Shown here piece by piece: positions 1 through 30,407 of a stretch of DNA of 64,000 bases; position 1 is the stretch's first letter, and every line of letters begins with the position of its first letter. Origin of the DNA: an uncultured Planctomycetia bacterium (GTDB lineage: Bacteria > Omnitrophota > Gorgyraeia > Gorgyraeales > Gorgyraeaceae); contig CAYPYS010000004.1 in the NCBI GenBank assembly GCA_964415355.1, positions 27,220 through 91,219 of the forward strand, read 5' to 3'. The notes beneath the pieces are model-generated. The model was not told where the DNA came from. It worked only from the letters and a program-made list of their open reading frames with translations, and did no database searches. The translations under genes were made by a program, and so were the position numbers.

Positions 1-2
1 TT

Positions 3-551
3 GGTTTTTTAGGAGTAGAGGATAGCGAACCTAACGCTGTCATGCATGAACTGGCAATCAAAGGAAGAATAAAGCTTGCGTTATCTGCCGCCTGGCAACA
101 TATCCTGAACCCCGCATATATAAACAGGTCTTTATTTGAAACTTTATTTGCTTACTGGACGACCTATTTAATACGATATAATTTTATCTACCTATGGCAC
201 TATATAGGATGGGAAGAAAATCATATAATATCTATATTAAAAAATGAATATGGTTGGGAGACTGAAAAAGATACGCTACTTACCTGGAGGACTGATGACG
301 GAACTTCTCCATTTTATAATTATATATATTGTACCGTAGCTGGCTTTACAGAAAATGACGCCTTTCGCAGCAATCAGATAAGAGAAGGCATGCTTACTAG
401 AGATGAGGCATTAAGGATCATATCGGAAGAAAACAAACCGCGCCATGACTCCATAAGACGCTATCTAGCAAAAATAGGACTTAACTATAACGAGGTAATG
501 GAAAAAATCAACGCTATCCCTAAGTTGTATAAAGAATCTTCTTATGAATAA
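3..551 (+). CDS. N-acetyl sugar amidotransferase family protein, C-terminal part (5' end lies outside the window)
   Basis: The reading frame is open back to the window edge. Its C-terminal motifs (LTRDEALRIISEEN, IRRYLAKIGLNYNEVMEKI) resemble the WbuX/PseA-type PP-loop amidotransferase C-terminus. Confidence 0.5.
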   Translation, partial: GFLGVEDSEPNAVMHELAIKGRIKLALSAAWQHILNPAYINRSLFETLFAYWTTYLIRYNFIYLWHYIGWEENHIISILKNEYGWETEKDTLLTWRTDDGTSPFYNYIYCTVAGFTENDAFRSNQIREGMLTRDEALRIISEENKPRHDSIRRYLAKIGLNYNEVMEKINAIPKLYKESSYE

Positions 552-1287
552 AACGCAAACAATCTATCTTTTAATTATTTTTATCTTTATGGGTCTGATA
601 TATTTTGCTACATCTTATTTTTCTCAACCTGAAGATATGCTTAAGGTTTACGGGGATATTTTCTACGATGATTACAATGGGGGCGATATCGTAATATTTT
701 GGCGTAAAGATTTAAAAAGAGGTAAACCTGTGGATAGAAATAACCCGTATATTGTCAATGGGCTTCCTGCTAAATATAAAATTTATGTTCCAAGATCTGT
801 TGGAAGTTTTTATGTGTCTGCCCGCTGTATACCGCCTAATAGCACTACCAAAAAATATTCCACTGCATATTTTGTCTCTGACCTGATAACTATTGGTCCT
901 AAAAATGACGGGGTCCATATTGATGTCCACTTAACGACAAGGAAGATGCTGATGGATTCCTACGCAGGCGCAAAGGTAAAAATATCAGGAAGGATCATAT
1001 ATGAAAACTATAAAAAGGGACAGATCGGTATTGCTGTAGAAAGTCCGGAGAATCATAAAAAAGTTTACCTGCCTCCTGATATAGCCCGTAAATTTTACCG
1101 CCTTCCAGGGGTTTATAGCATCGAAATCCCTATTAACGCTGGAGAGGTATATGTCAAGGCTCTGAATTATCCTGACCATAAAGAAATTGCAGGAGATACG
1201 CCGGGAGTTATTTATTCTAGCTATGAATATAACCCTATAAAAGTAGAATCATCTAATATTGAAAATATAGATATTACTCTAAAATAA
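544..1287 (+). CDS. secreted or membrane-anchored protein with two tandem beta-sandwich-like repeats (family A, member 1)
   Basis: It has an N-terminal hydrophobic anchor. It is a paralogue of the ORFs at 3782 and 6901, sharing motifs YDDY..G and ISGR/KISG...GxYxxxxP...V.xKALN that resemble CarboxypepD_reg/Cna-B-like folds. Confidence 0.55.
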   Translation: MNKTQTIYLLIIFIFMGLIYFATSYFSQPEDMLKVYGDIFYDDYNGGDIVIFWRKDLKRGKPVDRNNPYIVNGLPAKYKIYVPRSVGSFYVSARCIPPNSTTKKYSTAYFVSDLITIGPKNDGVHIDVHLTTRKMLMDSYAGAKVKISGRIIYENYKKGQIGIAVESPENHKKVYLPPDIARKFYRLPGVYSIEIPINAGEVYVKALNYPDHKEIAGDTPGVIYSSYEYNPIKVESSNIENIDITLK

Positions 1288-1333
1288 TGGCTAATTTATC
1301 AAAAATCAACAACATATCCCCCCGCGCATACCA

Positions 1334-2689
1334 ATGAAGGCAATATCCTTGAGACAAAAAATAGCCTTAATTCTATTCGGCCTGTATAGCTCCGTAATCC
1401 TTCTCGAACTAGGTCTGCGACTAGGGGGATTTCTATGCTTATCTTTACAAGAATATAGAAACAAGGTCTCCTTAACACAAGCTGGAACATACCGCATAAT
1501 GTGTTTAGGCGAATCTACCACTGCGGTTGGAAAAGAATATTCTTATCCCAGTCAGCTCGAAAATATTTTAAATCAGAGGAACATCGGCATAAAATTTGCG
1601 GTGATAAACAAGGGATTGAGCGGAACAACCACGGGAAGCATAGTATCGCACCTAGAAGATAATCTTAAAAAATATAGCCCTGATATGGTCATTACGATGA
1701 TGGGTATAAACGACGGCAGGCATATGCACGCAGACCGCGAGATAAACAATATGAAATATGAAAATCTTGATACCAAGAAAGTTTTATTGATATTCAGATC
1801 ATCAAGATTATACAAACTAATAAAACTCATCCAGCTTAACATTATACATAAATTAGGAGAAAAAAAAGGGACTGTTCCCCCAGAAGAGATTAAGTTAAAA
1901 AATCTTATAAATTACAAACAGGCAGAAAAAATGTATACGGAGATTATAGCAACGGATCCCGAAAACGACAGAGCGTGTTTCGAATTAGCGCAACTTTATA
2001 TGGATGATGAAAGATATGAAAAGGCCAGGGAGATGTGCGAAAGGGCCATAGAGATAAATCCTCGCAACGATTGGGCCTATTTAGTATTAGGGATCTGCTC
2101 TAAGAAAAAAATTCCGCATGAGGAAACGGCAAAGCTATTCAGAAAAACTTTGGAAATAAATTCAAGTAACTATAGGGCATATATTGAATTAGGGCTGTTG
2201 CATAAGGCTACTGGAGAATATTATAAATGCGAAGAGGTATTTAAAAAAGCTATAAAAATAAGGCCATGGGATGAATTTGCTTATGCAGCATTAATACAAT
2301 GCTATGAGGACCAAGGAAAACATAAGCTAGCCAAAGAATATTCTGGTCTGTTAGATATATTAGGATACGAGTATTATAATCCTGTAACCCACTATAATTA
2401 TCGCAAGCTTAAAGATATAGTAACCCACCACGGAATAAAGCTTGTGTGTGTACAATATCCGGTCCGTAGTTTAGAGTCTTTAAAAAAACTACTAGAACCA
2501 TATGAAAATATTATTTTCGTAGATAATGAAAAGATATTTAAAAATGCGATCAAAAAATCAAGCTACGATGAATATTTTATAGATATATTCGGAGGCAATT
2601 TTGGACATTGTACGCCCAAGGGGGATAGGCTTTTAGCCGAAAATATTGCAAATGCTATCTGTGAAGAAGTAGCCTTCATGAATGAATAA
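1334..2689 (+). CDS. SGNH/GDSL-like hydrolase with inserted TPR repeat array, N-terminal TM anchor
   Basis: SGNH-like blocks are visible (GESTT near the N-terminus, GINDG, C-terminal FGHCTPKGDRLLAEN). The central region has TPR-like helical repeats (AEKMYTEIIATDPENDRACFELAQLY...). Confidence 0.45.
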   Translation: MKAISLRQKIALILFGLYSSVILLELGLRLGGFLCLSLQEYRNKVSLTQAGTYRIMCLGESTTAVGKEYSYPSQLENILNQRNIGIKFAVINKGLSGTTTGSIVSHLEDNLKKYSPDMVITMMGINDGRHMHADREINNMKYENLDTKKVLLIFRSSRLYKLIKLIQLNIIHKLGEKKGTVPPEEIKLKNLINYKQAEKMYTEIIATDPENDRACFELAQLYMDDERYEKAREMCERAIEINPRNDWAYLVLGICSKKKIPHEETAKLFRKTLEINSSNYRAYIELGLLHKATGEYYKCEEVFKKAIKIRPWDEFAYAALIQCYEDQGKHKLAKEYSGLLDILGYEYYNPVTHYNYRKLKDIVTHHGIKLVCVQYPVRSLESLKKLLEPYENIIFVDNEKIFKNAIKKSSYDEYFIDIFGGNFGHCTPKGDRLLAENIANAICEEVAFMNE

Positions 2690-2771
2690 ATTTATTACAT
2701 TGCATAGCGATTTGGCGGTTGATACAATATAGGTAAGCTACAAATAGGAATAGAAAATTAAAAATTTAAGC

Positions 2772-3785
2772 ATGCTGGCAGATATAAACTTTATCTTATT
2801 CTTTATAGCCGTAACTCTGGCTGTAATTTTACTCGCGTTTCATTCCTATCTGACAAATGGTAAGCGGGTAACCTTCACCTTCTTCCTGTTTGCTTTCATC
2901 TGGGCTTTTATGAAAGAAAGCGCCCTGCCATTTTCTCCGATGTCTCCTTATGAATTTCTATTAGAAAATATTTCCATGACCCTGGTAATATTCACGGTTA
3001 TCTTTGGCTGGTTATTTACATTTTATATAAGCTGGCGTATAGCTGACAATATACTTGAAAGAATAGTATTTTTTAAAAAAAGTCTCTTTATGACATTGCT
3101 ATTGGGCATGTGGATTACAGCATCCATATCTTACGCGGTTGAATCAACGGGTATACATACTGATTGGTGGAAATGGAAAATAGACTGTTTAAAATTCTCA
3201 GATTTTCTCGTGCCAGCCTACAGCTATAATGCAGCGGGAGGTTGGATAGATTTTTTTATATATTTTATGTTAGCCTATTTTTTGATAGAGTGCTCAAAAT
3301 ATAAGACTGCCGCATGGAAATCTATATTCTTTTTAATGCCAGTGGCCTTTGTATTATTCTTGAGGGACGTTATCATGGCCAGAATGCTTGTGATTACCGC
3401 TGTAATTGTACTGGCTTTCTTAAATCCTCTGAAGTTATCCTATGAAAAAAATAAGACGAAAACCCTTGCCAAGTACTCGAGTATGATAGATTATCTGCCA
3501 CTAGCAATGACGGTTTTTATGATATTAATTATTGGACTTATAGACATCCTAGTAATAAAACAACCTTTGTTGCTTTTTTCTAAACTACCGATTGCATTTT
3601 GCGTCCTTTTTGCGATAAAAGAAATACCGTTTGTCGCCTTGGTTATATTATCCATTATTCTGCTTGCCCTTGGGGGCAAACTGGTTATTCCGGCTCTCAT
3701 TTTAACAATCTTTATTCTGTTATTAAAAATAATGGATTGGCTGCAAGTCCAGAAAAACAATCTATACGCTAAAATAATAAAGTGA
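2772..3785 (+). CDS. polytopic membrane protein, unknown family B (member 1 of 5)
   Basis: About 10 hydrophobic segments. Conserved motifs HSYxxxGxRxTFxFFLF, ATxxxxxWWxW, YFLIECSKYK, IFFLMP are shared with the ORFs at 23426, 24481, 25500 and 26498. Confidence 0.6.
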   Translation: MLADINFILFFIAVTLAVILLAFHSYLTNGKRVTFTFFLFAFIWAFMKESALPFSPMSPYEFLLENISMTLVIFTVIFGWLFTFYISWRIADNILERIVFFKKSLFMTLLLGMWITASISYAVESTGIHTDWWKWKIDCLKFSDFLVPAYSYNAAGGWIDFFIYFMLAYFLIECSKYKTAAWKSIFFLMPVAFVLFLRDVIMARMLVITAVIVLAFLNPLKLSYEKNKTKTLAKYSSMIDYLPLAMTVFMILIIGLIDILVIKQPLLLFSKLPIAFCVLFAIKEIPFVALVILSIILLALGGKLVIPALILTIFILLLKIMDWLQVQKNNLYAKIIK

Positions 3786-4246
3786 AAAATTTGTATATTC
3801 TTAAGCTAAAGTTACGTTTTATAAAAATTTTTTATACTATGTGCGTGTCTTTTTTAATTATCCTTTCACATTTCATATTGAGTCCGTATAATATTTTTAC
3901 ATTTTTAAGGTACGGCAGAGAAAAAATAACGATATCTGGAAAAGTCGTTTTTGACAACTACGCAAACGGTATAATAAAGATCGGAGCCTGGAGCAATGCG
4001 CTTAACAAAAGACAACCTATGCATCCGCCTGATATATCAAGAACAAAGATATTTAAACCCGGTTCGTTTCAACTCCCTGTCCCCAAGGATAGCGGGTTAA
4101 TCTACCTGTATGCTGTAAGCATGCCCAGGGAATTGCCTTTTTGGATAAGAGATCACCGACATAATTACCCTTTTGGTAGCTATAAAAATAACCCCTTGGA
4201 AGTCAAGGCATCTGATATAAAAGGGGTGCTTGTTGTAATAAAATAA
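3782..4246 (+). CDS. secreted single-repeat protein (family A, member 2)
   Basis: N-terminal hydrophobic segment. The ISGKVVFDNYANGIIKIGAW...GSFQLPVPKDSGLIYLYAV block is homologous to the repeats in the ORFs at 544 and 6901. Confidence 0.5.
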   Translation: MKNLYILKLKLRFIKIFYTMCVSFLIILSHFILSPYNIFTFLRYGREKITISGKVVFDNYANGIIKIGAWSNALNKRQPMHPPDISRTKIFKPGSFQLPVPKDSGLIYLYAVSMPRELPFWIRDHRHNYPFGSYKNNPLEVKASDIKGVLVVIK

Positions 4247-4257
4247 GGGAGATTTCA

Positions 4258-5439
4258 TTGAAACTATCAGTGCCTTTCAATGGCCAAAACGATCTTATAT
4301 CTAGGCTGAAAAAATATCCGGAGGTCACAGAACTCTATAGTAAATTAGCTTCTGATTTTATCGGAGGAGGAAAACATTCCTTCCAAATACCTTCTATATC
4401 CAAGAAAAAATTGGCCTGCAATATCAAGCAGGCTCATGAATACAAATTAAAATTTAACTATCTTTTAAACGCCAGCTGCCTCAATAACATGGAATGGACT
4501 ATTGCTGGCCAAAAAAAAATAACCCGACTCATCGAGTGGCTTGCCGGATTAAAAGTAGACGCGCTTACTGTGGCAACGCCCTACCTCTTGGAATTAATCA
4601 AAAAACGGTACCCTATGTTTAAAGTATGCGTCTCTGATTTAGCATATGTCAATTCCCTACAAAGGGCAAAACACTGGGAAAATTTAGGGGCGGATCGTAT
4701 CACCCTTTTTAACATCGATCTGAACAGGAATTTTACCCTACTTGAAGATATAAGAAAAAACATCAAGTGCGAATTAAAGCTCATTTTAAACGTAAATTGT
4801 CTATACGGGTGTCCTTTTTATATGTATCATGCAAACCTATCTTCCCATGCCTCTCAGTCCGAACATATTCTGAAAGGCTTTGTCATCGACTATTGCCGTA
4901 TAAAGTGTAGATATCAACAGATTATAGATCCAGTGGATTTTATACGAAGCACCTGGATAAGACCGGAGGATGTTGGCCATTATGAAAAAATAGGCATAGA
5001 CTTTTTTAAAATAATAGACCGTGGCATGACTACCCAAACGATAGCGTCCATAGTGAAAGCTTATATCAACAGAAACCACAGCGGCAACTTATTAGACCTA
5101 TTTCCTGATCCTTCAAAGAGCGTAATGTTTGCAAAAAAGGGACTGTCCACAAAAATTAAATATTTCCTGCGGCCGCTTACGGTTAATGTATTTAGATTGA
5201 GAAAATTTGCGAATCTATTCACAAATGCTATCTATATCGACAATAAAAAATTGGATGGTTTTATAGAAAATCTGAAAGATCAAAAATGCGGCAGGCAATC
5301 ATGCGAAGAATGCCAATATTGCCACGAGATGAGCAAAAAGGCGGTCTATATAAACGAAAAGGCCTGTAAAAAAATAAAAAAGCACTACGAAGCCTGTTTA
5401 AAAGACATTGTTTCAGGAAAGCTCTTCAGGTATTTCTAG
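4258..5439 (+). CDS. U32-family (UbiV/UbiU/RlhA-like) protein with Cys-rich C-terminus
   Basis: Probable TTG start. Motifs VTELY....GGG and AHEYKLKFNYLLNA resemble U32 TIM-barrel proteins. A C-terminal CGRQSCEECQYC cluster is present. Confidence 0.5.
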   Translation: MKLSVPFNGQNDLISRLKKYPEVTELYSKLASDFIGGGKHSFQIPSISKKKLACNIKQAHEYKLKFNYLLNASCLNNMEWTIAGQKKITRLIEWLAGLKVDALTVATPYLLELIKKRYPMFKVCVSDLAYVNSLQRAKHWENLGADRITLFNIDLNRNFTLLEDIRKNIKCELKLILNVNCLYGCPFYMYHANLSSHASQSEHILKGFVIDYCRIKCRYQQIIDPVDFIRSTWIRPEDVGHYEKIGIDFFKIIDRGMTTQTIASIVKAYINRNHSGNLLDLFPDPSKSVMFAKKGLSTKIKYFLRPLTVNVFRLRKFANLFTNAIYIDNKKLDGFIENLKDQKCGRQSCEECQYCHEMSKKAVYINEKACKKIKKHYEACLKDIVSGKLFRYF

Positions 5440-5453
5440 ATAAAATAAACTTT

Positions 5454-6923
5454 ATGAAAGTAATTTTAATAAATCCATTATCTGAATTGGCAGAAACAAG
5501 CGACGCTTATTATCATTCTGTTTCTCCGCTTCCACCTTTGGGGCTAGCCTATCTGTCTTCGGCTTTAAAAAATAACGGTTTCGAGGTCTCAGTAGAAGAC
5601 CAATACGCTAGCAGGTTGAGCAATGAGAGACTTATAAAAAAAATAAAAAATGCGTCCCCGCAAGTCGTAGGATTTTCCTGTCTCACAACAGCTATGGATA
5701 ATATAACAAGGTTTGCCAAAAAAATAAAAGCGTCTGATATAAAGACAAAGATCATTTTGGGAAATATCCACCCTACGATTTTCCCGGAGGAAACACTAAA
5801 AAGAGGAATAGCTGATATCGTCGTAAGGGGCGAAGGCGAGCAGACATTGACAGAGGCCATTGTCTCTCTGGATAAAGGGTATGACCTGGCTAATGTAAAG
5901 GGAATCAGTTATATCCGCAATGAGAAGATCATGCATAATCCTGACAGAGAAATTATTGAAGATTTAGACATGCTTTCGTATCCCGACTGGCATTCCCTGG
6001 ACTTAAGGAATTACAAAAACTACCCGCAATTGGGCATCTATAATAGGCTTGTTCTGCCTGTGCAGGCATCAAGGGGGTGCGCTTACGACTGCCTGTTTTG
6101 CTCACAAGATAAGATTTATAAAAAACCACGGTATAGAAATATAAAAAATGTAGTTAATGAAATAGAATATTACTATAAAGAATTCAAAATAGACTATATA
6201 GGTTTTAATGATGCCTATTTTCCTTTTTCGAAAACTTCCTGCTTAGAATTCTGCGATGAAATAATTCGGCGCAAACTGCATAAGAAGATAAAATGGTTCA
6301 CCGAAACACGGGTGGACATGGTTGATGTAGAATCTATCCGGCGTATGAAAGAAGCGGGTCTTTATTTAATTATGTATGGATTTGAAACAGGGAACCAAAA
6401 GGTTCTTGATGCTACAGGTAAAAAAACCACACTAATCCAAGCGAGAAAGGCCATAGAATACACCCGTAGATTTAAAATTCGCACTATGGGCCTATTTATG
6501 CTTGGGTTGCCTGCCGATACAAAAGATACATGCCGTGAAACTATTGGATTTGCCAAGGAACTTGATCCTGATATATGTAAGTTTAATATAGCTGTTCCAT
6601 ACCCGGGCTCTAAATTCTTTGATGAGCAGGATATTAAACTGAACAACATTTATAACGAAACCAATAGATACACAAGCTGGTCTGATTGGTCTTCCTATGA
6701 TGGCGAAATAATCTATAACCCGCCTTCGATGACTAAAAAGGAATTGCTAAATTTGCAAAGAAAAGGCATGTTTAGTTTTTATATGCGGCCCAAGATTATC
6801 TTAAGGTCACTTATTAAAAGAATCTTTTCTTTTCCTGATCTTTGGCATGGCGCTTGTCTTTTATTTAGAAACTATTTAAAAACACTGAAAGGAGGGAGAA
6901 ATGCAAAAAAATATCTTTCTTGA
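5454..6923 (+). CDS. B12-binding domain radical SAM protein (class B)
   Basis: N-terminal VILINP...PPLGLAYLSSAL Rossmann-like B12-binding region. Radical SAM cluster motif SRGCAYDCLFC. Confidence 0.85.
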   Translation: MKVILINPLSELAETSDAYYHSVSPLPPLGLAYLSSALKNNGFEVSVEDQYASRLSNERLIKKIKNASPQVVGFSCLTTAMDNITRFAKKIKASDIKTKIILGNIHPTIFPEETLKRGIADIVVRGEGEQTLTEAIVSLDKGYDLANVKGISYIRNEKIMHNPDREIIEDLDMLSYPDWHSLDLRNYKNYPQLGIYNRLVLPVQASRGCAYDCLFCSQDKIYKKPRYRNIKNVVNEIEYYYKEFKIDYIGFNDAYFPFSKTSCLEFCDEIIRRKLHKKIKWFTETRVDMVDVESIRRMKEAGLYLIMYGFETGNQKVLDATGKKTTLIQARKAIEYTRRFKIRTMGLFMLGLPADTKDTCRETIGFAKELDPDICKFNIAVPYPGSKFFDEQDIKLNNIYNETNRYTSWSDWSSYDGEIIYNPPSMTKKELLNLQRKGMFSFYMRPKIILRSLIKRIFSFPDLWHGACLLFRNYLKTLKGGRNAKKYLS

Positions 6924-7677: not shown

Positions 7678-7705
7678 AACTAGAATTTAAAAAGGCTGCC
7701 AATAT

Positions 7706-9628: not shown

Positions 9629-9663
9629 AATATACGGAACTATCTTATTTCTATAGTCTTGGA

Positions 9664-11121: not shown

Positions 11122-11235
11122 TTGACCTCCTTTAAATCTTTAATTTTATTGTATACCAAACTATGGGTCTTTTCAAGGCAAGCATTGCCGATGCCCCGGA
11201 CTATACAAGTTTAAGTTTTGTGCCACTATTACCTG

Positions 11236-11244: not shown

Positions 11245-11279
11245 ATAAGAAACACGATGTAACCTGGCTGAGGCAAAAA

Positions 11280-16867: not shown

Positions 16868-16878
16868 GCAGGATAAAA

Positions 16879-18420: not shown

Positions 18421-18437
18421 AATTAAAATATTAATAT

Positions 18438-19934: not shown

Positions 19935-19946
19935 CAGGATAGGATC

Positions 19947-21002: not shown

Positions 21003-21012
21003 TAAAATTTAT

Positions 21013-21804: not shown

Positions 21805-21807
21805 AAA

Positions 21808-23424: not shown

Positions 23425-23425
23425 A

Positions 23426-24484
23426 ATGATGGTTGTATTATTCGCCTTAACTATCTTTTTAGCATTTTACCTCCTCTTATCAATGCGACATTGTCACCTT
23501 AAAAGAGGAGGGAGGCTGACCTTCACCTTTTTCTTTTTTGGCTTCCTCTATATCTCAAGATGGGTAATAAAAAATATGGGGCCTTCGCCGGAATATTTAA
23601 AAACAGCTCGATGCTCGATCTTCTCCGCAAGGACAAGCTTATTGAGTACGCTGTCTAGCGCAAAAGACCCAGCGATAAATTTTATTCATGTGTTATTAGT
23701 GCATATTGTAATTATTATAGGCTGGCTTTGCCTATTCTACGCTGGTTGGTGGCTGGCAGAGAGGATTATGCGACATTTCGATATTTTGCAAAAGCGCCTT
23801 TTCCCTACCTTGCTGCTAAGTTCTTTTATAACCGCTAGCATCGCATATCCTATTGAAGCGACAGGGAGCAGTATTGGCTGGTGGTGGTGGCAATTGCCTG
23901 CTAAATCATTCGATATATTCTTCATCGGCTGCCCAGCACAACCCATGAGGGCTGAATTTTACTCTGTTCTTTTATTTCTGGCAGCGTATTTTTTAATCGA
24001 GTGCTCGAGGTTCAGGCATAAAAGTTGGCGGATGCTCTTTTTCTTATTACCGTTCGTGCATTTCTTTACCATAACTTTTTTCGGTCATGGTCTGCCAAGG
24101 GCCATCGAACGTCTCGGAATCTTTATAACAATCCTGATATTAACATTTTTTAGCAAACTATCCTTAGAAAATACAGGGGAAGATGACCTCTCCACGCTTA
24201 AGAGCGTGGAGGATTTATTGTCCATAGCATTGATTTCTCTGTTATCCCTGTCGTGCCTTGTGCATATATTTATAATCCAAAAGCCGCTATTAGTCTTTTC
24301 AGCATTGCCTGCTTTCTTTTTTTATTTACTGTCTATAAAAAAGGAGCTGTTTGTCCTGGTCCTGATTTTTAGCGTAGCATTGCTATTTTTAGGTAAAACT
24401 ATAGCAGCGCCTCTAATGGTGCCGATATCTATTTTTTTGGTGTTTAAGGCAAGTGACCATTATCAAAAAAGGGTGGCGAAATGA
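23426..24484 (+). CDS. polytopic membrane protein, family B (member 2)
   Basis: Family motifs HCHLKRGGRLTFTFFFF, GWWWWQLP, YFLIECSRFRHK, LFFLLPFVHFF. Confidence 0.6.
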   Translation: MMVVLFALTIFLAFYLLLSMRHCHLKRGGRLTFTFFFFGFLYISRWVIKNMGPSPEYLKTARCSIFSARTSLLSTLSSAKDPAINFIHVLLVHIVIIIGWLCLFYAGWWLAERIMRHFDILQKRLFPTLLLSSFITASIAYPIEATGSSIGWWWWQLPAKSFDIFFIGCPAQPMRAEFYSVLLFLAAYFLIECSRFRHKSWRMLFFLLPFVHFFTITFFGHGLPRAIERLGIFITILILTFFSKLSLENTGEDDLSTLKSVEDLLSIALISLLSLSCLVHIFIIQKPLLVFSALPAFFFYLLSIKKELFVLVLIFSVALLFLGKTIAAPLMVPISIFLVFKASDHYQKRVAK

Positions 24485-25506
24485 ACATATGGCCTGCGTT
24501 TTTAATATGCCTTTTGGGTATCTTGGTATTTATACTGCATTCTTATTCAAGACAGGGCCCGAGATTAACGTTTAATTTTTTCTTTTTTGCCTTCCTTGTC
24601 GCCATCATAAAAGAAGGGCCCATGCGCATAAATGGCTTATTAATGAAAAACCCTTCTATGCCGTATGAGTTTTTAATAAAAGGGGTGCCTGTGGTTGCCA
24701 GTACCACGTTAGTAATACTAGGCTGGGTCTTTACTTTCTATTTGGGCTGGTATATTGGGGGAAGGGTTTCGGAAAGATTGGGCGCATGGCAAAAGCGCAT
24801 CTTCCCGACACTGCTTTTGAGCGGTCTGGTAACAGCAAGCATTGGTTACTGCGTTGAGGCCACAGCAATGGGGCTCGGATGGTGGCACTGGACAATAGAA
24901 GATGCTAGATTAGCCCCTCTTTTAGTAGGCGCCCCTTTCATTGTCTTCGAGACCTGGGTACACTTCCCCACACAATATCTGCTTATGCCTTATTCTTTAA
25001 TAGAATGCTCGAGATTTAAAAGAATGTCCTGGAAGGGTATATTTTTTGTAATACCTTTTATTCACAGCCTTTCCACGCAAGCGCGATTAGAATCTGTAAG
25101 AATAGGGGTTGAGCATGCGGCATTAATGGTCCTGCTGGTCCTCGCCTTTACTAATCCATTACGCTTTGATTACTCAGGGATAAAAAAGCACGAAGGGGTA
25201 TCTTTTCTTAAACCAAAACTATTAGATCAATTGCCGATGGCGGTGATGATAATGTTATTATCTACGCTGGCCCTACTTGACGTGGCAAAGATACATGATG
25301 CGGGACTGGTTATATCGATACTTCCGGCAATGTTTTTTATCCTGCTCGCAATCAAGAGAATACCTTTTTATTGGATAGCGTCCCTTGCGCTTCTGTGCTT
25401 TCTGATATTACAAAAACAGGCGATTATAGCAACGGCTCCAGTCGCTATCGTATTGATTTTCAAAAGCGCGATGAAAATCACGTCTAATTTAAAAGGAGAA
25501 TGCTAA
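24481..25506 (+). CDS. polytopic membrane protein, family B (member 3)
   Basis: ATGA start/stop overlap with the ORF at 23426. Motifs HSYSRQGPRLTFNFFFF, GWWHW, SLIECSRFKRM, PFIH. Confidence 0.6.
   Translation: MNIWPAFLICLLGILVFILHSYSRQGPRLTFNFFFFAFLVAIIKEGPMRINGLLMKNPSMPYEFLIKGVPVVASTTLVILGWVFTFYLGWYIGGRVSERLGAWQKRIFPTLLLSGLVTASIGYCVEATAMGLGWWHWTIEDARLAPLLVGAPFIVFETWVHFPTQYLLMPYSLIECSRFKRMSWKGIFFVIPFIHSLSTQARLESVRIGVEHAALMVLLVLAFTNPLRFDYSGIKKHEGVSFLKPKLLDQLPMAVMIMLLSTLALLDVAKIHDAGLVISILPAMFFILLAIKRIPFYWIASLALLCFLILQKQAIIATAPVAIVLIFKSAMKITSNLKGEC
25111..25391 (+). repeat. 281-bp segment identical to 26100-26381 (copy 1, inside family B member 3)
   Basis: Read base by base: identical from GAGCATGCGGCATTAATGG through GCGTCCCTTGCGCT. 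Confidence 0.85.
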
Positions 25507-26501
25507 TGGTTACTATAAACTTCGTTATTCTTTGCGGTGTTGGAATAATTGCTTGCGTCTTACATTCCTATTTTAAGAGGGGAGGCGCCTTGACGCTGAA
25601 TTTTTTCCTGTTTTCATTCATGCTGACCTTCACCAGGGGTGGAGTACATATTTTCAAATTTATAAACTCATCCGGGCCAAGTTCTATTATAGTTAAGGCA
25701 GCGCTTTCTACATTAATATGGGTGCTCGCATTTTATCTTTCTGTATATATCGCCGAAAAGGTCGCTGACAGGTCGACTCAGATAAAGCACAGGATCTTCC
25801 CTGTGCTATTGTTCGCCGGAATAACTATCTCTGCTATCGCCTATGCCTTCGAGACCACAGCTACAAACATCGGCTGGTGGGCTATTCCCGTTACAGATGT
25901 CGACAGCGGGTTTTTGCTTACCCCTTTTTATGTAATAAGAAAATGGTTTTATTTTTATGTCTATTTTTTAGCTGCTTATTTCCTGATTGCCTGCTCAGAA
26001 TACAAGAGAAAAAACTGGAAGACAATCTTTTTTATACTGCCGTTCGTTCACGCCTGGATACCGCGATTCTTTGGAGAAGGGCTCCCCCAAATTATTGAAG
26101 AGCATGCGGCATTAATGGTCCTGCTGGTCCTCGCCTTTACTAATCCATTACGCTTTGATTACTCAGGGATAAAAAAGCACGAAGGGGTATCTTTTCTTAA
26201 ACCAAAACTATTAGATCAATTGCCGATGGCGGTGATGATAATGTTATTATCTACGCTGGCCCTACTTGACGTGGCAAAGATACATGATGCGGGACTGGTT
26301 ATATCGATACTTCCGGCAATGTTTTTTATCCTGCTCGCAATCAAGAGAATACCTTTTTATTGGATAGCGTCCCTTGCGCTGATATCTCTATTGCTATTAA
26401 AAAAACTGGCACTACCTATTATCGTACCTGTTGGTTTTTTGATCATTTTCTGTTCTATCGTAAAAACGCGTGCTAAAACAACAAACATACCGCTGAAATG
26501 A
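25500..26501 (+). CDS. polytopic membrane protein, family B (member 4)
   Basis: HSYFKRGGALTLNFFLF, GWWAIP, YFLIACSEYKRK, LPFVHAW. Confidence 0.6.
   Translation: MLMVTINFVILCGVGIIACVLHSYFKRGGALTLNFFLFSFMLTFTRGGVHIFKFINSSGPSSIIVKAALSTLIWVLAFYLSVYIAEKVADRSTQIKHRIFPVLLFAGITISAIAYAFETTATNIGWWAIPVTDVDSGFLLTPFYVIRKWFYFYVYFLAAYFLIACSEYKRKNWKTIFFILPFVHAWIPRFFGEGLPQIIEEHAALMVLLVLAFTNPLRFDYSGIKKHEGVSFLKPKLLDQLPMAVMIMLLSTLALLDVAKIHDAGLVISILPAMFFILLAIKRIPFYWIASLALISLLLLKKLALPIIVPVGFLIIFCSIVKTRAKTTNIPLK
26100..26381 (+). repeat. about 281-bp segment identical to 25111-25391 (copy 2, inside family B member 4)
   Basis: Same as above. Encodes the identical protein segment EHAALMVLLVLAFTNPLRFDYSGIKKHEG...RIPFYWIASLAL. 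Confidence 0.85.
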
Positions 26502-27532
26502 GCGTCTTTCATCTATTTTTCTTTGCGTTGATAGGCCTTGCCTTGCTTATAGTCCACTCATATTTCAAGAGGGGGTTCCGTCTTACTTTGAACTTTTTCT
26601 TATTAGCCTTTATCGTCGGATTAAGAAAAGAATCCGGTAGTTTTCTACAGCCCATGTCGGTCAGGACGCAGTACCCCACGCCTTTTATCCATGCCAATGA
26701 CTCACCATTACTTTTCAATGTGATCAATATAACTATAGGCTGGATAATCGTTTTTTATCTCTCCTGGTATATAGCTGAAAATATTATTAAAAAAATACCT
26801 CATGTTAAAGAAAAAATATTCCCTGCGGCATTATTCGCCGGGGTATCCATAGCCGCCTTTTCGTATGCCATCGAGGCGACGGCTATAAATATCGGGTGGT
26901 GGAGATGGATGTTTTTTGAAAAACAATTTTCCGGATTTCTGGTGGGCGGCGTTCATTTCTTTGCACTCAACGCCTGGTTCTCTTTTGGCCTTCACTTCTT
27001 AGTCCCTTTCTTTTTGATAGAGTGTTCGAAGTTTCGCAAGGCGAGCTGGAAATGCATATTCTTTCTCATCCCGTTCTCGAGGACATGCACCATGCTTTTT
27101 CTCGGCTCGCACATACATCGCAGTATACATGAATTCATCTTCTTTCTTGTATTAATAATACTGGTATTTATCCAACCATTACAGTTTAATTACCCGCAAT
27201 TTAAAACAAGATTGTCCGTACATCCTTTCCAGCGCAAATTGATCGAAGCCATCCCCTTAGCCGTAATCCTTATGATCCTGATTGTGCTGAGTTATGTCGA
27301 TCTGATACAGATAAAAAATGTCTACTTGCTAGTCAGTCTTCTTCCTTTTATTGTGCTTGTGTTTTTAGCTTTTAAAAAAATACCGCCGCTATTGATCTTG
27401 TTGTTCACTGCGGCAATATTGTTAAGTCTTGGCAAGGCAGGGATCCCCGCATGCATGCCTGCATTGGCAGTTTTGGGCCTTTTGGGGATAGGAAATCTTA
27501 TGGCCAGCAAAAAATACTCCAAGGCTATATAA
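26498..27532 (+). CDS. polytopic membrane protein, family B (member 5)
   Basis: ATGA overlap with the ORF at 25500. HSYFKRGFRLTLNFFLL, GWWRWMFF, FLIECSKFRKASWK. Confidence 0.6.
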   Translation: MSVFHLFFFALIGLALLIVHSYFKRGFRLTLNFFLLAFIVGLRKESGSFLQPMSVRTQYPTPFIHANDSPLLFNVINITIGWIIVFYLSWYIAENIIKKIPHVKEKIFPAALFAGVSIAAFSYAIEATAINIGWWRWMFFEKQFSGFLVGGVHFFALNAWFSFGLHFLVPFFLIECSKFRKASWKCIFFLIPFSRTCTMLFLGSHIHRSIHEFIFFLVLIILVFIQPLQFNYPQFKTRLSVHPFQRKLIEAIPLAVILMILIVLSYVDLIQIKNVYLLVSLLPFIVLVFLAFKKIPPLLILLFTAAILLSLGKAGIPACMPALAVLGLLGIGNLMASKKYSKAI

Positions 27533-27537
27533 AATAT

Positions 27538-28926
27538 ATGATGGCTAAGGCGTTATTAATATCTTTGGCGACAGATAGCACCAGCGGCCCAGACAAGGGG
27601 AGATTTTTATTTAAGGATTTGCAGCGCAGACCGCTTTTGGGTCTCTTGTATATCTCTTCAGCGCTCGAGTCCAGAGGGATAAAATGCGAGCTCCTAGACC
27701 AGTCTGTGTCTGATTTTTCTATTGACCGATTGATTGACCGGGTCAAAGAAAACAGGCATATCTTTGTCGGCTTCTACTCACAATTAGTAATAAAAGATAA
27801 GGTAAATGAATACATACGTACATTAAAAGTTGCATGCCCCGAGTCAACCATTGTCGTAGGGGGGCCTGGTTTTTTGTATTACAAAGAATTTTTAAATAAC
27901 GGCTGCGACATTGTTTGCCGAGGCGAAGGGGAATCGACCATTGTAGAAATTGTAGACCATTTAAAAGGAAATAGGCGGCTTAATGAAATAGACGGGATTG
28001 TTTATAGGAACAGAAAGACTGGGGCAATCTTTTATAATAAGGACCGAACGCTTGTCAAAAATCTGGATTCCTTGCCTTTCCCAGCCTGGAACAGCGTAAA
28101 TCTGGACCTATACTATGATTATTCCATATTGCCGATGAAGCGCCCTTTCGCCGTCATAATCACTTCGCGGGGGTGTCCGTTCAAATGCAGTTTTTGTAGC
28201 GGCCCTTATTTTTGGAACAATGTCTACCGCACCAGATCTGTAGAAAATGTCCTAAAAGAGATCGATCTTCTGGTATCAAAGCATGGAATCAGGTATCTTC
28301 TCTTTCAAGATGATGTATTTGGCCTGGACAATAATTGGCTTAGAGACTTCTGTCTCTCATTGATCAATAAGCGCTACAAAGACCTGCACTGGATGTGCAT
28401 CCTGCATCCTCTAGCCTTAAAACAAGATCCCTGTGGGCTTATTGGCCTGATGAAAAAAGCGGGGTGCGACCTGTTTGTCTTCGGCCTCCAATCAGCCAAT
28501 ACTAGTATCCTAGAAAAAATCTGCAGGCATCCGTGCGAGCCTGAGACATTGAAAGGCATAATTAAAATTGCGAACAAACTTGGCATCATGAGTTCCGTGG
28601 ATTTCATACTGGGACTGCCGGGCGAGAACAAAGATACTATCCGCGAAAACATGGATTTCGTATTAAAAGCGAGACCATATCTAGTTAACTTTCATGCCTT
28701 ACGATTAGAGCCTGCTTCAAAACTATCGGAGACCTATAAAGACAAAAAAATATGTAAATTTTCTGGGAACGAACTGATACGGCTGTGTCAAATGGCTAAT
28801 CAGAAATTCTATCTTAGGCCCCAAAACGCTATAAGGATTCTCGCGTTCATCCTTAAAAAGAATCCGGCCCTCTTTTTTAAAACGGCTAGGTTCTGCAACC
28901 ACAAGATGTTATCCGAGCTGTCATGA
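27538..28926 (+). CDS. B12-binding domain radical SAM protein (class B)
   Basis: TSRGCPFKCSFC, LLGLLYISSAL. Start placed at MMAKALL (27538) to avoid an 80-nt overlap with the upstream gene. Confidence 0.8.
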   Translation: MMAKALLISLATDSTSGPDKGRFLFKDLQRRPLLGLLYISSALESRGIKCELLDQSVSDFSIDRLIDRVKENRHIFVGFYSQLVIKDKVNEYIRTLKVACPESTIVVGGPGFLYYKEFLNNGCDIVCRGEGESTIVEIVDHLKGNRRLNEIDGIVYRNRKTGAIFYNKDRTLVKNLDSLPFPAWNSVNLDLYYDYSILPMKRPFAVIITSRGCPFKCSFCSGPYFWNNVYRTRSVENVLKEIDLLVSKHGIRYLLFQDDVFGLDNNWLRDFCLSLINKRYKDLHWMCILHPLALKQDPCGLIGLMKKAGCDLFVFGLQSANTSILEKICRHPCEPETLKGIIKIANKLGIMSSVDFILGLPGENKDTIRENMDFVLKARPYLVNFHALRLEPASKLSETYKDKKICKFSGNELIRLCQMANQKFYLRPQNAIRILAFILKKNPALFFKTARFCNHKMLSELS

Positions 28927-30407
28927 TAGATAAAATACGCCTTTTGGCAAAATCTATAACAAGGCGCACGGGCATGCCTTTGTATCTTATAATTATCTTT
29001 TCTTTGCTTCTCGCGATCCTTTTGATATTTGACTGGTTTGTTTCTGATCCTACGCGAGCAGCAAAAATAGATCGTTATATATTATTCTCTATGGCAGAGA
29101 CATCTCGTTTCAATTACGCAAAAGCTGCTATCTGTAATCCCCTTGTCTTTCTTAACCCAAACGCCAAACCGCTCTATATGATAATCGCCAGTATGTTTGT
29201 TTTTATTCTTCCGTTTGGCCTGATTTCCATTAAAATGCTAAATTCTCTGCTGGCAATAGGCATATTGGGGGTTACCTATAAACTGGTACGAAAAACAGGG
29301 TTAGATGATTTTCATGCCTCCATAGCATTAATACTAACATTGACCTCCCCAATGTTTTTCTTGCTTTCCATAGCGGCTTCTACAGAGCTACTGTTTTGTT
29401 TCTTTCTGCTTTTGGCTATTTGTTCCTTTTACGAAAAAAAATATTTTAATTCGGCTCTGCTAATATCTCTGTTGCCGCTTATACGGCAAGAAGGGGTAAT
29501 ATATTTCGCCATCTGTTCATATTTCCTTATAAAAGCAAAAAATGCAAAATACCTGTTTGTTTTACCAATCCCTCTGGCTATATGGATTCTTTTGAATCGT
29601 GTTCTATTGAGTCATTCTTTCGTTTACCCGTTTTTTGTCTTTGTGGATATGCCTGGACCGACCCCTGCTAGTTCAGTAATGTCCCTTGCAGAGCTAAAGA
29701 GCTTTTTGCCGCTGATATTTTGTCATCCTCTGTTTTTCTTATTCCCCATAGGGTTGATGTTTAAGGTGGCGGATAAAAACTATAGACCCATTGTCGTTTC
29801 ACTGATATTACACAGTATCTTCTTTATCGTCGCTGCTATTATACAGTATTTAACGATCAAGCACACATCTTACTATTTTCGCTATATCGTGCCTCTTGTC
29901 CCGCTTATGGCTATTATGGCAGCCACCCTTTTTAGAAAAGTCAAGGATAATGGTCTAAAAATCTCCCTTATTGTTTTAATATTTATTATTTCGCTTGGAA
30001 TGCTTGTCGCAAAAATTAACGCGTTCCAACAACATCCCAGAATTGTCAGCGAAAGCCTTGATGAGCAGGAAGAAAAATCCATCAAAGAAGCAACTGTGTG
30101 GCTGAACGATTATATGCAGAAAAACGGGCTTCGTCATATTTTTTATCCCGGGAACCTGGTAACGCATAAAATAATAAGGCGATTAAGCGTCTATCTGTCT
30201 TTTGGGGCAACAATGTATCCTGTTAAAGACTTTAAGGAGATTTACGACCCGATAACATTCAACGCCCTTGACAAAGACTTTGGAGATCCCGCATATAGAG
30301 GCGTGGTCCTGGTATTGGACCCTGAGAAGGAGGCGGGGTTGATTTCGGGCCAAAGAACGAGTTTCTTAAAAAAATTCCCCCTGGTTTCTATATATCTTCT
30401 TGAATAG
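28923..30407 (+). CDS. polytopic membrane protein (family C, member 2)
   Basis: Paralogue of the ORF at 18438. ATGA overlap with the upstream radical SAM gene. Confidence 0.45.
   Translation: MIDKIRLLAKSITRRTGMPLYLIIIFSLLLAILLIFDWFVSDPTRAAKIDRYILFSMAETSRFNYAKAAICNPLVFLNPNAKPLYMIIASMFVFILPFGLISIKMLNSLLAIGILGVTYKLVRKTGLDDFHASIALILTLTSPMFFLLSIAASTELLFCFFLLLAICSFYEKKYFNSALLISLLPLIRQEGVIYFAICSYFLIKAKNAKYLFVLPIPLAIWILLNRVLLSHSFVYPFFVFVDMPGPTPASSVMSLAELKSFLPLIFCHPLFFLFPIGLMFKVADKNYRPIVVSLILHSIFFIVAAIIQYLTIKHTSYYFRYIVPLVPLMAIMAATLFRKVKDNGLKISLIVLIFIISLGMLVAKINAFQQHPRIVSESLDEQEEKSIKEATVWLNDYMQKNGLRHIFYPGNLVTHKIIRRLSVYLSFGATMYPVKDFKEIYDPITFNALDKDFGDPAYRGVVLVLDPEKEAGLISGQRTSFLKKFPLVSIYLLE

Follow-up and report, generated by a model that had tools for sequence, protein, structure and literature searches.

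A radical SAM- and glycosyltransferase-rich gene cluster with a new membrane protein family beside dnaA in a Candidatus Omnitrophota genome

The analyzed stretch of DNA (64,000 nucleotides, the window) comes from a Candidatus Omnitrophota genome, since every named close relative of its DnaA belongs to Omnitrophota (74-80% identity). Its positions 1-30407 form the right-hand part (30 kb) of a locus that exceeds 40 kb and runs at least 10 kb further left of the window start. This upstream part carries another B12-binding radical SAM (rSAM) gene, a GT2 gene and PMT_2 genes, and it also encodes a further SGNH-like protein, a glutaminase, a carbamoyltransferase of NodU type and a polysaccharide deacetylase resembling those of XrtA systems. 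The ORF layout of 1-30407 comprises 25 tightly packed ORFs, not the 26 genes counted in an earlier sequence-only reading, with 9664-11121 (g10) as the sole ORF on the minus strand. The co-directional and overlapping arrangement described in that reading was confirmed: many neighboring ORFs overlap by 4-8 nt, and only four intergenic gaps within the cluster are 37 nt or longer. This tight coupling, with 24 of the 25 ORFs on the plus strand, suggests co-transcription. The features are as follows.

1..551, +, g01, WbuX-like N-acetyl-sugar amidotransferase, C-terminal part (TIGR03573 match over this part)
544..1287, +, g02, "bsand" family, N-terminally anchored (family alignment; no Pfam or NCBIfam match)
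1334..2689, +, g03, membrane-anchored SGNH/GDSL hydrolase with TPR repeats (Lipase_GDSL_2, several TPR families)
2772..3785, +, g04, memA paralogue 1, new polytopic membrane family (family alignment; no Pfam match)
3782..4246, +, g05, bsand family, short member (family alignment)
4258..5439, +, g06, U32-family Fe-S protein, kept beside g07 and memA (PF01136)
5454..6923, +, g07, B12-binding rSAM enzyme (PF02310, PF04055)
6901..7677, +, g08, bsand family member (family alignment)
7706..9628, +, g09, AsnB-type glutamine amidotransferase (GATase_6/7, Asn_synthase)
9664..11121, -, g10, B12-binding rSAM enzyme (domain and family matches)
11280..11981, +, g11, polyprenyl-phosphate sugar synthase-type GT2 (PF00535)
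11989..13851, +, g12, AsnB-type glutamine amidotransferase (GATase, Asn_synthase)
13880..15418, +, g13, GT-C (PMT_2) polytopic glycosyltransferase (PF13231)
15443..16867, +, g14, B12-binding rSAM enzyme (domain and family matches)
16861..18420, +, g15, GT-C (PMT_2/PMT) glycosyltransferase (Pfam matches)
18438..19934, +, g16, memB paralogue 1, polytopic (weak match to the LA_3751/LA_3752 putative glycosyltransferase family)
19947..21002, +, g17, U32-family Fe-S protein, UbiU-like (PF01136)
21013..21804, +, g18, UbiV-like partner of g17, 263 aa (predicted fold, four conserved Cys, position)
21808..23424, +, g19, GT-C (PMT_2) glycosyltransferase (Pfam matches)
23426..24484, +, g20, memA paralogue 2 (family alignment)
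24481..25506, +, g21, memA paralogue 3 (family alignment; AF2 model)
25500..26501, +, g22, memA paralogue 4 (family alignment; repeat shared with g21)
26498..27532, +, g23, memA paralogue 5 (family alignment)
27538..28926, +, g24, B12-binding rSAM enzyme (domain and family matches)
28923..30407, +, g25, memB paralogue 2 (paralogy with g16; orthologues found)
30570..31907, +, dnaA, right-hand boundary marker outside the cluster (Pfam matches)

HMM searches bore out the domain content proposed earlier, with four B12-rSAM enzymes, two AsnB proteins, one GT2, three PMT_2 GT-C proteins and the SGNH-TPR protein. Three further families, present in five (memA), two (memB) and three (bsand) copies, have no Pfam match in 1-30407; alignments agree with the five and two members previously counted for the two membrane protein families.

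All four rSAM proteins (at 5454, 9664 on the minus strand, 15443 and 27538) combine PF02310 and PF04055 with a C-x3-C-x2-C motif. The top NCBIfam model for g07 is BchE (233 bits, below the 481-bit cut-off), its closest solved relative is AprD4, and its orthologues share 55-68% identity. In the longer ORF of g24, the alignment with orthologues (55-64% identity) starts at residue 31; on L002 the gene was called as 462 aa. At the level of the family, these enzymes are putative radical C-methylases.

Peptidase_U32 matches are restricted to g06 and g17, whereas three U32 proteins had been proposed; the third, g18 (20911-21804), gave no U32 sequence signal. The g06 protein scored 40 bits with PF01136 (cut-off 22.4 bits) and matched the g17 profile with an hhalign probability of 97.6%. 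It has eight invariant Cys, and its orthologues (39-60% identity) occur in the related loci L008, L011, L014 and L015. The g17 protein scored 97 bits with PF01136 and 88 bits with the UbiU model, below the 440-bit cut-off, and its invariant Cys include a C-x6-C pair. The true start of g18 is 21013 (the ORF was called from 20911). We judge it to be a UbiV-like Fe-S TIM-barrel partner on the basis of its predicted fold, four conserved Cys and fixed place after a U32 gene: the predicted barrel matches the U32 protein Mk0906, and genes of the g18 family come after a U32 gene in bacteria as well as in archaea. A prephenate-dependent hydroxylation is the general proposal for U32 proteins, and the substrates known for them are not sugars but rings of aromatic or heteroaromatic type (precursors of ubiquinone, bases of rRNA and tRNA) (PMC10990095). 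As family members, the cluster proteins may likewise be hydroxylases.

The reading frame of g01 is open from base 3, and the amidotransferase previously described as truncated is cut only by the window edge: the full-length WbuX-like gene on another contig, L016, encodes 352 aa (142 bits with TIGR03573, below the 203-bit cut-off). Both AsnB proteins exceed the TIGR01536 cut-off; g09 scored 411 bits with this model (cut-off 267) and 422 bits with TIGR03108, below the cut-off of 817.

The closest solved relatives of g11 are ArnC (E = 1.5e-26), then DPMS and GtrB, and it resembles the ArnC and PgfS family models with scores below their cut-offs. The GT-C proteins g13, g15 and g19 have approximately ten TM-like segments each, and g19 has orthologues in L006 and L007 (44-47% identity). 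The two memB proteins share 34% identity; g16 matches NF047440 below its cut-off (E = 1e-9) and has an orthologue in L006 (60% identity). The domain searches of 1-30407 found no gene for nucleotide-sugar synthesis, no initiating phosphoglycosyltransferase, no Wzx/Wzy/Wzz and no ABC exporter.

The five memA paralogues share 30-56% identity with one another, and represent a new polytopic family with a predicted fold unlike any solved structure. The AF2 model of g21 (pLDDT 88, pTM 0.89) has no structural relative in the PDB; among flippases, GT-C proteins, O-antigen ligases and all other folds solved so far, none resembles memA. Certain members of the family carry a fused domain, either TPR or a sulfatase fold of periplasmic type, and in L013 a memA gene adjoins two sulfatase genes. 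The membrane-anchored bsand proteins (154-258 aa), the putative beta-sandwich proteins of the sequence-only reading, share 29-34% identity, with one N-terminal hydrophobic segment each in g02 and g08; g03 also has an N-terminal TM-like segment. Homologues of g02 lie beside memA in L008, L013 and L014, and a g05 homologue in L015 is located between rSAM and memA genes.

Ten homologous syntenic loci were found, eight of them in Omnitrophota MAGs, with amino acid identities of up to 60-68%. Their recurring core, in syntenic order, consists of memA arrays, memB, g06-g07, g17-g18, g24 and g19. Glycan genes beside the homologous loci encode DegT, GT2 and GT4 proteins, a transferase of the WecA family, a GH44-like protein, sulfatases, a polysaccharide deacetylase and a carbamoyltransferase. 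In three relatives, rnpA-yidD-yidC-jag-parAB lies upstream of dnaA in place of the cluster, and the position next to dnaA is lineage-specific. The GC content is 36.7% in 1-23425, 41.0% in 23426-30407 and 44.2% downstream, with GC3 values of 0.367, 0.451 and 0.479, respectively. GC3 of the whole cluster differs from that of the downstream genes (Mann-Whitney p = 5e-5), whereas that of its last six genes does not (p = 0.18). This composition check restricts the AT-richness claimed for 1-30.4 kb to 1-23.4 kb. The absence of the REP element from the cluster was confirmed: all 13 copies of this 37-nt palindrome lie between 33505 and 63255, and shuffled sequence gave 0 matches. The cluster itself offers just the four intergenic gaps of at least that length. 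The horizontal acquisition suggested by the sequence-only reading is in line with the lineage-specific place and the deviant 1-23.4 kb, but eight of the ten syntenic loci and the host are Omnitrophota, and the GC step at ~23.4 kb falls inside a block syntenic in L006. Thus, the cluster looks like a phylum-typical Omnitrophota system that has moved or recombined, and not like a foreign island.

On balance, if only just, we consider it probable that the locus works under anoxic conditions to build and tailor a glycoconjugate of the cell envelope, starting from sugars linked to polyprenyl phosphate. The verified domain content and the glycan genes beside the homologous loci support this class, as in the anaerobic surface-glycoconjugate pathway proposed earlier, of which the methylation and hydroxylation steps are family-level predictions. 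No cluster protein reached a specific equivalog cut-off among the NCBIfam models, and substrates were therefore not assigned; for substrate types, order of steps, acceptor and memA role, we infer the following scheme. On the cytoplasmic face, the ArnC/DPMS/GtrB-like GT2 proteins (g11 and an upstream paralogue) would load sugars onto polyprenyl phosphate. Soluble enzymes would then tailor the sugar or lipid-linked intermediate: AsnB-type amidotransferases may convert a carboxylate to an amide, and the WbuX-like enzyme, probably with the stand-alone glutaminase, may form an amidine, joined by the deacetylase and carbamoyltransferase encoded upstream of the window. The B12-rSAM enzymes would catalyze radical C-methylation or related chemistry, and the U32 Fe-S enzymes (g06 and the UbiU/UbiV-like g17/g18) O2-independent, probably prephenate-dependent, hydroxylation. 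After translocation, g13, g15, g19 and probably both memB proteins would pass sugars to a periplasmic acceptor (possibly LPS, a surface protein or a polymer), with the SGNH-TPR and anchored bsand proteins working on the periplasmic side. The probable task of the five memA proteins is to handle the lipid-linked intermediate, whether by moving it across the membrane, as a transferase or as a scaffold on which the U32 and rSAM enzymes act.

Several points speak against the glycan reading: many class B radical SAM enzymes use lipids, the known U32 substrates are not sugars, memA has no counterpart among solved folds, and the synthesis, initiation and export genes named above were not detected in 1-30407. 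It is conceivable, although unlikely, that the memA/U32/B12-rSAM core modifies a lipid (of the membrane, polyprenyl or quinone-like type) through C-methylation, the forming of C-C bonds and hydroxylation without O2, with memA as a membrane-embedded enzyme or substrate-presenting scaffold, and with GT2 and GT-C proteins that only glycosylate this lipid or belong to a neighboring system. Where related loci are long enough for neighbors to be visible, memA genes in most of them adjoin U32 and/or B12-rSAM genes. The invariant memA positions are mainly aromatic plus one Glu, and a memA-sulfatase fusion lies beside UbiA-family and radical SAM genes. The cluster rSAMs also score on the lipid-related models HpnJ, HpnR and TIGR04072, but below cut-offs and no better than on BchE, RiPP or phosphonate methylase models. 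For the characterized pair UbiU-UbiV, the hydroxylated substrate is a polyprenylated ring (PMC6747719, PMC10990095). However, fatty-acid, isoprenoid, squalene and quinone biosynthesis genes are absent from the window, as is an SCP2/UbiT-like protein in its Pfam search, and the genes nearby, both in this genome and in its relatives, have overwhelmingly to do with glycans.

None of the ten related loci carries a homologue of the AsnB proteins, so the window may join a conserved core to variable modules and not encode one linear pathway. Somewhat less likely still, the 30 kb would be a recombination-prone surface-glycan region specifying several independent modifications, with g04-g08 and g16-g25 as the conserved Omnitrophota core and g09-g15 and the upstream genes as strain-specific modules. 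Gene order varies between the homologous loci, several assemblies end inside the cluster, GC3 steps from 0.37 to 0.45 at ~23.4 kb, and g21 and g22 share a 300-nt tract at 97% identity. Across the window's first 3.6 kb, the identity to a co-occurring strain is 99.97%, and overall identity to L016 drops to 97.8% once the adjoining upstream 1.9 kb is counted. Against this stand the suggested co-transcription and the location of the GC step inside the L006-syntenic block; a mosaic would also be compatible with the envelope-glycan assignment rather than opposed to it.

It is highly improbable that the locus is a RiPP or natural-product cluster, in which rSAMs and lasso-cyclase-like AsnBs would act on a peptide, with the small secreted proteins as precursors or carriers. 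Omnitrophota MAGs from one anoxic marine basin were reported to contain and express biosynthetic gene clusters (PMC9902471). The rSAMs score on RiPP methylase models such as ApyD and TIGR03975, and the lasso cyclase model matches the AsnBs, in every case below the cut-off. However, the AsnBs have far better scores with the models for asparagine synthase and EPS amidotransferase, and neither a precursor peptide nor a leader peptidase nor an ABC exporter was detected. In addition, the membrane proteins include seven of GT-C or GT-C-like type plus five memA, and the size and anchors of the bsand proteins are unlike those of precursor peptides.

For the cell-envelope glycoconjugate locus favored here, no description of the cluster was found in the searchable literature, and none of the classical loci (O-antigen, capsule, Arn, hopanoid, PEP-CTERM) fits, in agreement with the earlier statement that no known cluster matches. 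Among characterized proteins, UbiV has a four-Cys pattern which the pattern of g18 resembles (PMC6747719).

The cluster upstream of dnaA is a probable envelope-glycoconjugate locus that holds two novel components, namely the polytopic membrane family memA and a family of UbiV-like proteins represented by g18, here in a non-quinone context. The locus comprises 25 ORFs (g01-g25) within 1-30407, with 24 of them on the plus strand and many boundaries overlapping by 4-8 nt, which bears out the co-directional, tightly packed layout described in the sequence-only reading with the ORF count at 25. The landmarks with fixed coordinates are as follows.

5454, plus strand: g07, B12-binding radical SAM protein
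9664-11121, minus strand: g10, B12-binding radical SAM protein and sole minus-strand ORF
15443, plus strand: g14, B12-binding radical SAM protein
21013, plus strand: true start of g18 (263 aa), as set by its homologues
27538, plus strand: g24, B12-binding radical SAM protein
30570: start of dnaA, the right-hand boundary marker

Annotation with Pfam and NCBIfam HMMs confirmed most of the earlier motif-based assignments. All four radical SAM proteins scored above both Pfam cut-offs for an N-terminal cobalamin-binding domain (PF02310) followed by the radical SAM core (PF04055), and their translations contain the C-x3-C-x2-C motifs SRGCAYDCLFC, SRGCLYDCIFC, GRGCPHSCIFC and SRGCPFKCSFC. Among the subfamily models tested (BchE, HpnJ, HpnR, PhpK, TIGR04072 and others), the top score was 233 bits for BchE versus a cut-off of 481, and the rest were relatively lower. 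The four proteins resemble the class B enzymes BchE, HpnJ/HpnR, PhpK, GenK and AprD4 in their B12-binding domain and C-x3-C-x2-C core, but unlike them reach no curated equivalog cut-off, and they may catalyse methylation or some other radical chemistry.

The two AsnB-type amidotransferases (g09 and g12) are of the full-length type; both start with MC, match PF13522/PF13537 (class II GATase) and PF00733, and exceed the TIGR01536 cut-off. The single DPM1/ArnC-like GT2 protein, g11, matches PF00535, and its top solved relatives over residues 5-221 are ArnC (E = 1.5e-26), DPM synthase (DPMS, 6e-18) and GtrB (2e-17), with the ArnC-specific equivalog giving 114 bits versus a cut-off of 529. The three GT-C transferases (g13, g15 and g19) are PMT_2-type proteins with ~10 TM-like segments and scores above the PF13231 cut-off, and the SGNH hydrolase g03 combines its SGNH domain with TPR repeats. 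The WbuX-like amidotransferase g01 had been called truncated, but the gene is simply cut by the window edge: its frame is open from base 3 and encodes 352 aa on another contig. An Rfam scan of the cluster revealed no riboswitch, including the cobalamin type, and a promoter consensus scan gave counts at background, with terminator-like hits mostly intragenic.

The two membrane families without a Pfam match proved to be genuine paralogue sets, with five members in memA (g04 and g20-g23, 30-56% identity) and two in memB (g16 and g25, 34% identity). The three putative beta-sandwich proteins (g02, g05 and g08) share 29-34% identity, are N-terminally anchored and also lack a Pfam match. Against GT-C models, the memB proteins produced a weak sub-threshold match to NF047440 (E = 1e-9) and PMT_2 at E = 1, and a search of PDB sequences found no memB relative with a solved structure. 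PDB sequence and profile searches with g16, g17, g18 and g19 gave nothing useful. The memA proteins tested negative for membership of the GT-C group (PMT_2; ArnT, PMT-like).

An exhaustive HMMER search returned only 255 cluster representatives of memA among 1.84 billion. No precomputed Pfam domains were found on the members returned by an indexed search, and two of the memA paralogues of the window had no Pfam match even at E <= 10. About 11 helices are predicted for the memA domain, and its predicted fold is unlike that of any solved membrane domain. From the model helices and the positive-inside rule, we infer two conserved patches, a probably periplasm-proximal one (W82, Y87, W90, Y123-x2-E126 and W134-W135) and a probably cytoplasm-proximal one (L-I-E-C-S-x-F-K-x2-S-W-K through H195). 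In longer members of the family, the memA domain is fused to a C-terminal sulfatase-fold domain (PF00884) or to TPR repeats, and at the related locus L013 two sulfatase genes come after a memA gene. These fusions and neighbours point to the handling of a lipid-linked envelope intermediate. On contig L047 (Logan SRR22388063_16641), an 836-aa memA-sulfatase fusion is encoded divergently to UbiA-family prenyltransferase, radical SAM and uncharacterised genes grouped in one block.

Within the memA array, a 300-nt tract is 97% identical between g21 (25111-25410) and g22 (26100-26399), the two proteins being otherwise ~56% identical, which suggests a recent gene conversion between tandem paralogues. 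An assembly artefact was rejected as the source of this repeat: an apparent g22 (331 aa, 55% identical to g21) is found on three NCBI and ENA contigs. The initial 3.6 kb of the window are 99.97% identical in a co-occurring strain, and overall identity to contig L016 drops to 97.8% once the adjoining upstream 1.9 kb are included. The tract and this strain divergence are signs of ongoing recombination.

Three U32 proteins had been proposed, two of which hold: g06 and g17 match Peptidase_U32 (PF01136) with 40 and 97 bits, respectively (cut-off 22.4), are related to each other (hhalign probability 97.6%), and are both rich in invariant Cys residues, with a C-x6-C pair among those of g17. The third, g18, was negative as a U32 protein by BLASTP, by hhalign with four-sequence profiles (7% probability) and by Pfam at E <= 10. 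It belongs to a widespread, unannotated family of ~263-aa proteins (249 hits, including Bathyarchaeia, Desulfomonilia and Chloroflexota MAGs), in which C31, C191, C209 and C213 are conserved in 28-30 of 30 sequences. Their pattern, C-xn-C-x17-C-x3-C, can be compared with C-xn-C-x12-C-x3-C of UbiV (PMC6747719), and the predicted TIM-barrel fold of g18 matches a U32 structure. In two of the three contexts inspected, a g18-family gene lies directly after a U32 gene, and in the third (related locus L024) two genes after one. The g17-g18 adjacency is kept at the related loci L006, L008 and L014, and the partner is also found directly behind the U32 gene in archaeal and Desulfomonilia MAGs.

Because of the Cys pattern of g18, its predicted fold and its position after a U32 gene, the three lines of evidence that carry this assignment, we read g17 and g18 as a UbiU/UbiV-like pair. 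As in UbiU-UbiV, a U32 Fe-S protein (g17) is followed ~10 nt downstream by a smaller partner, with four conserved Cys residues in each. In contrast to UbiU-UbiV, g17 remains below the UbiU cut-off (88 versus 440 bits), g18 lacks a PF01136 signal, the cluster proteins include no SCP2/UbiT partner or ubi gene, and the g18 family also occurs widely among archaea and anaerobic bacteria with other gene neighbours. In the Bathyarchaeia and Desulfomonilia MAG contigs L020-L022, the g18-family gene and its U32 partner adjoin FAD_binding_4/FAD-oxidase_C, CCG-domain and ETF genes, another setting for the same U32 pair and one no better characterised. The locus L024 (ENA ERZ27253378 k141_748423) unites memA, two U32 genes, a B12-radical SAM gene and a g18 homologue, and also encodes a 963-aa GT2/radical SAM/SPASM fusion, a 907-aa ABC protein and a PEMT-like protein.

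The same sequence is present in several JGI and ENA metagenome assemblies, and the closest named relatives of its DnaA are all from Candidatus Omnitrophota (74-80% identity). On contig Ga0118720_1000061, the cluster runs at least 10 kb further to the left, which takes the length of the locus beyond 40 kb. This extension contains the following genes.

An additional B12-radical SAM gene and GT2, more PMT_2 genes and a second SGNH-like protein
A stand-alone class II glutaminase, a NodU-like carbamoyltransferase and a polysaccharide deacetylase (best model of the XrtA-system type)

The left border was also sought through the yidC gene of this organism, but one metagenome scan with the YidC of a relative with 84% DnaA identity gave other organisms only.

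A genome scan by memA alignment, a pattern scan reaching fairly close relatives only, identified ten loci with memA, eight of them from Omnitrophota MAGs, one labelled Planctomycetales and one Paceibacterota (labels as recorded). Mapping by tblastn and ORFs revealed a recurring core composed of tandem memA arrays, memB, g06 with g07, g17 with g18, a g24-type radical SAM protein, a g19-type GT-C protein and often a member of the putative beta-sandwich family, with identities of up to 60-68%. At L006, this core forms the block g16-g17-g18-memA(x4)-g24-g19-g25. In relatives, the core is flanked by glycan genes (DegT, GT2, GT4, a WecA-family transferase seen only beside L008, a GH44-like protein and sulfatases). 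No AsnB homologues were found in the ten related loci, which marks a part of the window as variable. The description of the cluster as a mosaic, with variable modules beside a conserved core, is likely to be true in part.

The GC content is 36.7% in 1-23425, 41.0% in 23426-30407 and 44.2% downstream, and the corresponding GC3 values are as follows.

g01-g19: 0.367
g20-g25: 0.451
18 downstream genes: 0.479

Compared with the downstream genes, GC3 of the whole cluster differed (Mann-Whitney p = 5e-5), but that of the last six genes did not (p = 0.18). Since the GC content is also 37% over at least 10 kb further upstream of the window, the claim of low GC stands for the first 23 kb and this upstream sequence, and not for the last part of the cluster. 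The reported lack of a REP element in the cluster was reproduced (none of the 13 copies lies within 1-30407), but by itself this is weak evidence because only four intergenic gaps there reach at least 37 nt. This REP-like element is a 37-nt perfect palindrome (TAACTTTACAYTTYAAC..GTTRAARTGTAAASTTA) with all copies in 33505-63255, each starting at or within ~75 nt of a gene end, and with two copies back to back at 60766 and 60805, directly before tRNA-Gln. Shuffled sequence gave no matches.

In three relatives (DnaA 77-84% identical), the genes rnpA-yidD-yidC-jag-parA-parB-ndk occupy the opposite strand upstream of dnaA, and dnaN-dciA-gyrB-gyrA follow downstream as in the window. In one relative, L027, hisG and a 513-aa gene come next, also matching the window. 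The position of the cluster directly upstream of dnaA is therefore lineage-specific. The proposal that the cluster was horizontally acquired gains from this absence at the same position in three relatives and from the deviant composition (1-23.4 kb only, versus the 34 kb downstream). Against it, 1-30407 encodes no integrase or transposase domain, and eight of the ten homologous loci from the pattern scan, which reaches fairly close relatives only, come from Omnitrophota MAGs. The cluster itself looks typical of Omnitrophota, and the GC step at 23.4 kb lies inside the block whose synteny is kept in L006. A move or recombination inside the phylum explains this better than entry from another lineage.

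Over 1-34000, the cumulative GC skew is flat across the cluster, has a local minimum at ~30-31 kb, and rises steadily from dnaA on. If oriC adjoins dnaA, 24 cluster genes would be transcribed towards the origin, head-on to replication; the upstream genes of the relatives are on the other strand. A DnaA-box search for oriC gave 24 near-matches versus ~17 expected, with no clustering.

Several further features lie downstream of dnaA. The 1248-aa GyrA (36095-39841) is interrupted by an intein that carries a LAGLIDADG homing-endonuclease domain; inteins are present in both GyrB and GyrA in the related contig L026, and in neither L027 nor L028. An exact copy of the 3' 58 nt of tRNA-Glu (39891-39968) lies at 42303-42360, overlapping a degenerate tRNA (42279-42352) that scores 31 bits. 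Between the two repeats is a 590-aa metallo-beta-lactamase-fold ORF (40409-42181) with low GC3 (0.32), an arrangement that looks like an insertion at tRNA-Glu; no integrase was seen. A 3410-aa ORF (42526-52758) combines B12-binding and radical SAM domains, a SAM methyltransferase domain and MutS domain V, and is missing at the corresponding position in L027. This multi-enzyme giant fits the very long proteins reported for Omnitrophota (bioRxiv 10.64898/2026.06.07.730766).

The data establish family membership, synteny and position, and the earlier envelope-tailoring interpretation is partly supported; substrates, product, acceptor and the role of memA are inferences. The best-supported reading is a polyprenyl-phosphate-sugar-based, periplasm-facing locus for envelope-glycan assembly and tailoring. 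In such a pathway, the GT2 enzymes would make lipid-linked sugar donors, which the GT-C enzymes would transfer, and the amidotransferases, radical SAM and U32 enzymes would tailor intermediates in the cytoplasm. In the main competing explanation, it is a membrane lipid that the memA/U32/radical SAM core tailors. U32 proteins have been proposed to be prephenate-dependent, O2-independent hydroxylases, and most of their subfamilies are without known function (PMC10990095). All known U32 substrates are aromatic or heteroaromatic rings (PMC10990095), which weakens hydroxylation of a sugar and leaves room for a lipid or other substrate.

A more specific proposal, which we regard as rather improbable, is that the memA arrays, g06-g07, g17-g18, g24 and memB constitute a previously undescribed membrane-embedded enzyme system, in which memA with U32 hydroxylases and cobalamin-dependent radical SAM proteins would produce an envelope lipid or glycolipid of an undescribed kind, C-methylated and hydroxylated without O2. 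This core has so far been found almost only in Omnitrophota MAGs. If true, U32 enzymes would gain their first substrate class outside quinones and RNA.

The locus offers testable candidates for the anaerobic tailoring of glycans or lipids by cobalamin radical SAM and U32 Fe-S enzymes. Further candidates are the widespread unannotated UbiV-like partner family, also found in Bathyarchaeia and Desulfomonilia MAGs, and memA, which has a confident predicted structure with no solved-fold match and five paralogues in one locus. We know of no work on Omnitrophota envelope chemistry. These bacteria are uncultured, ultra-small and possibly predatory or parasitic (PMC10066038). Should the product be a heavily modified surface polymer, it could affect attachment to hosts or prey and could serve as a chemical biomarker for Omnitrophota in anoxic waters.

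No known cluster had been recognised as a match to this gene combination, and none emerged from comparison with the Arn, Wzx/Wzy or ABC O-antigen/capsule, PEP-CTERM exopolysaccharide, hopanoid and ladderane-type systems, and literature searches found no paper describing the combination. Hopanoid, ladderane-type, Arn, O-antigen and PEP-CTERM loci were rejected, their defining components being missing or below cut-offs. The HpnP/HpnR/HpnJ equivalogs gave 68-183 bits versus cut-offs of 578-650, and the cluster has no squalene-hopene cyclase. Pfam hits of the 25 ORFs include none of the classical O-antigen or capsule parts (initiating phosphoglycosyltransferase, flippase, polymerase, ABC exporter and nucleotide-sugar genes).

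The XrtA/PEP-CTERM system is echoed in the best NCBIfam models of both AsnB proteins (TIGR03108) and of the upstream deacetylase (TIGR03006), which are XrtA-system versions. However, the scores are 422 and 481 versus 817 bits for TIGR03108 and 222 versus 276 for TIGR03006, with no exosortase or PEP-CTERM match. LtaS, EptA and OpgB are membrane-anchored sulfatase-fold transferases, and some memA proteins likewise carry their PF00884 domain behind a polytopic domain. Unlike in these enzymes, the membrane domain of memA resembles no solved one, and the memA proteins of the window have no fused sulfatase domain.

With the Arn, Gtr and Pgf systems, the cluster shares a GT2 protein (g11) homologous to ArnC, DPMS and GtrB and with PgfS as its second-best NCBIfam match, several PMT_2 GT-C proteins, and a PF01522 deacetylase upstream of the window, the family to which ArnD belongs. 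ArnA, ArnB and the small flippase of the Arn system were not detected. In contrast to the single GT-C gene of Arn, Gtr and Pgf, the locus has at least five, together with two memB genes, and adds to this common plan B12-radical SAM, U32, AsnB and memA proteins.
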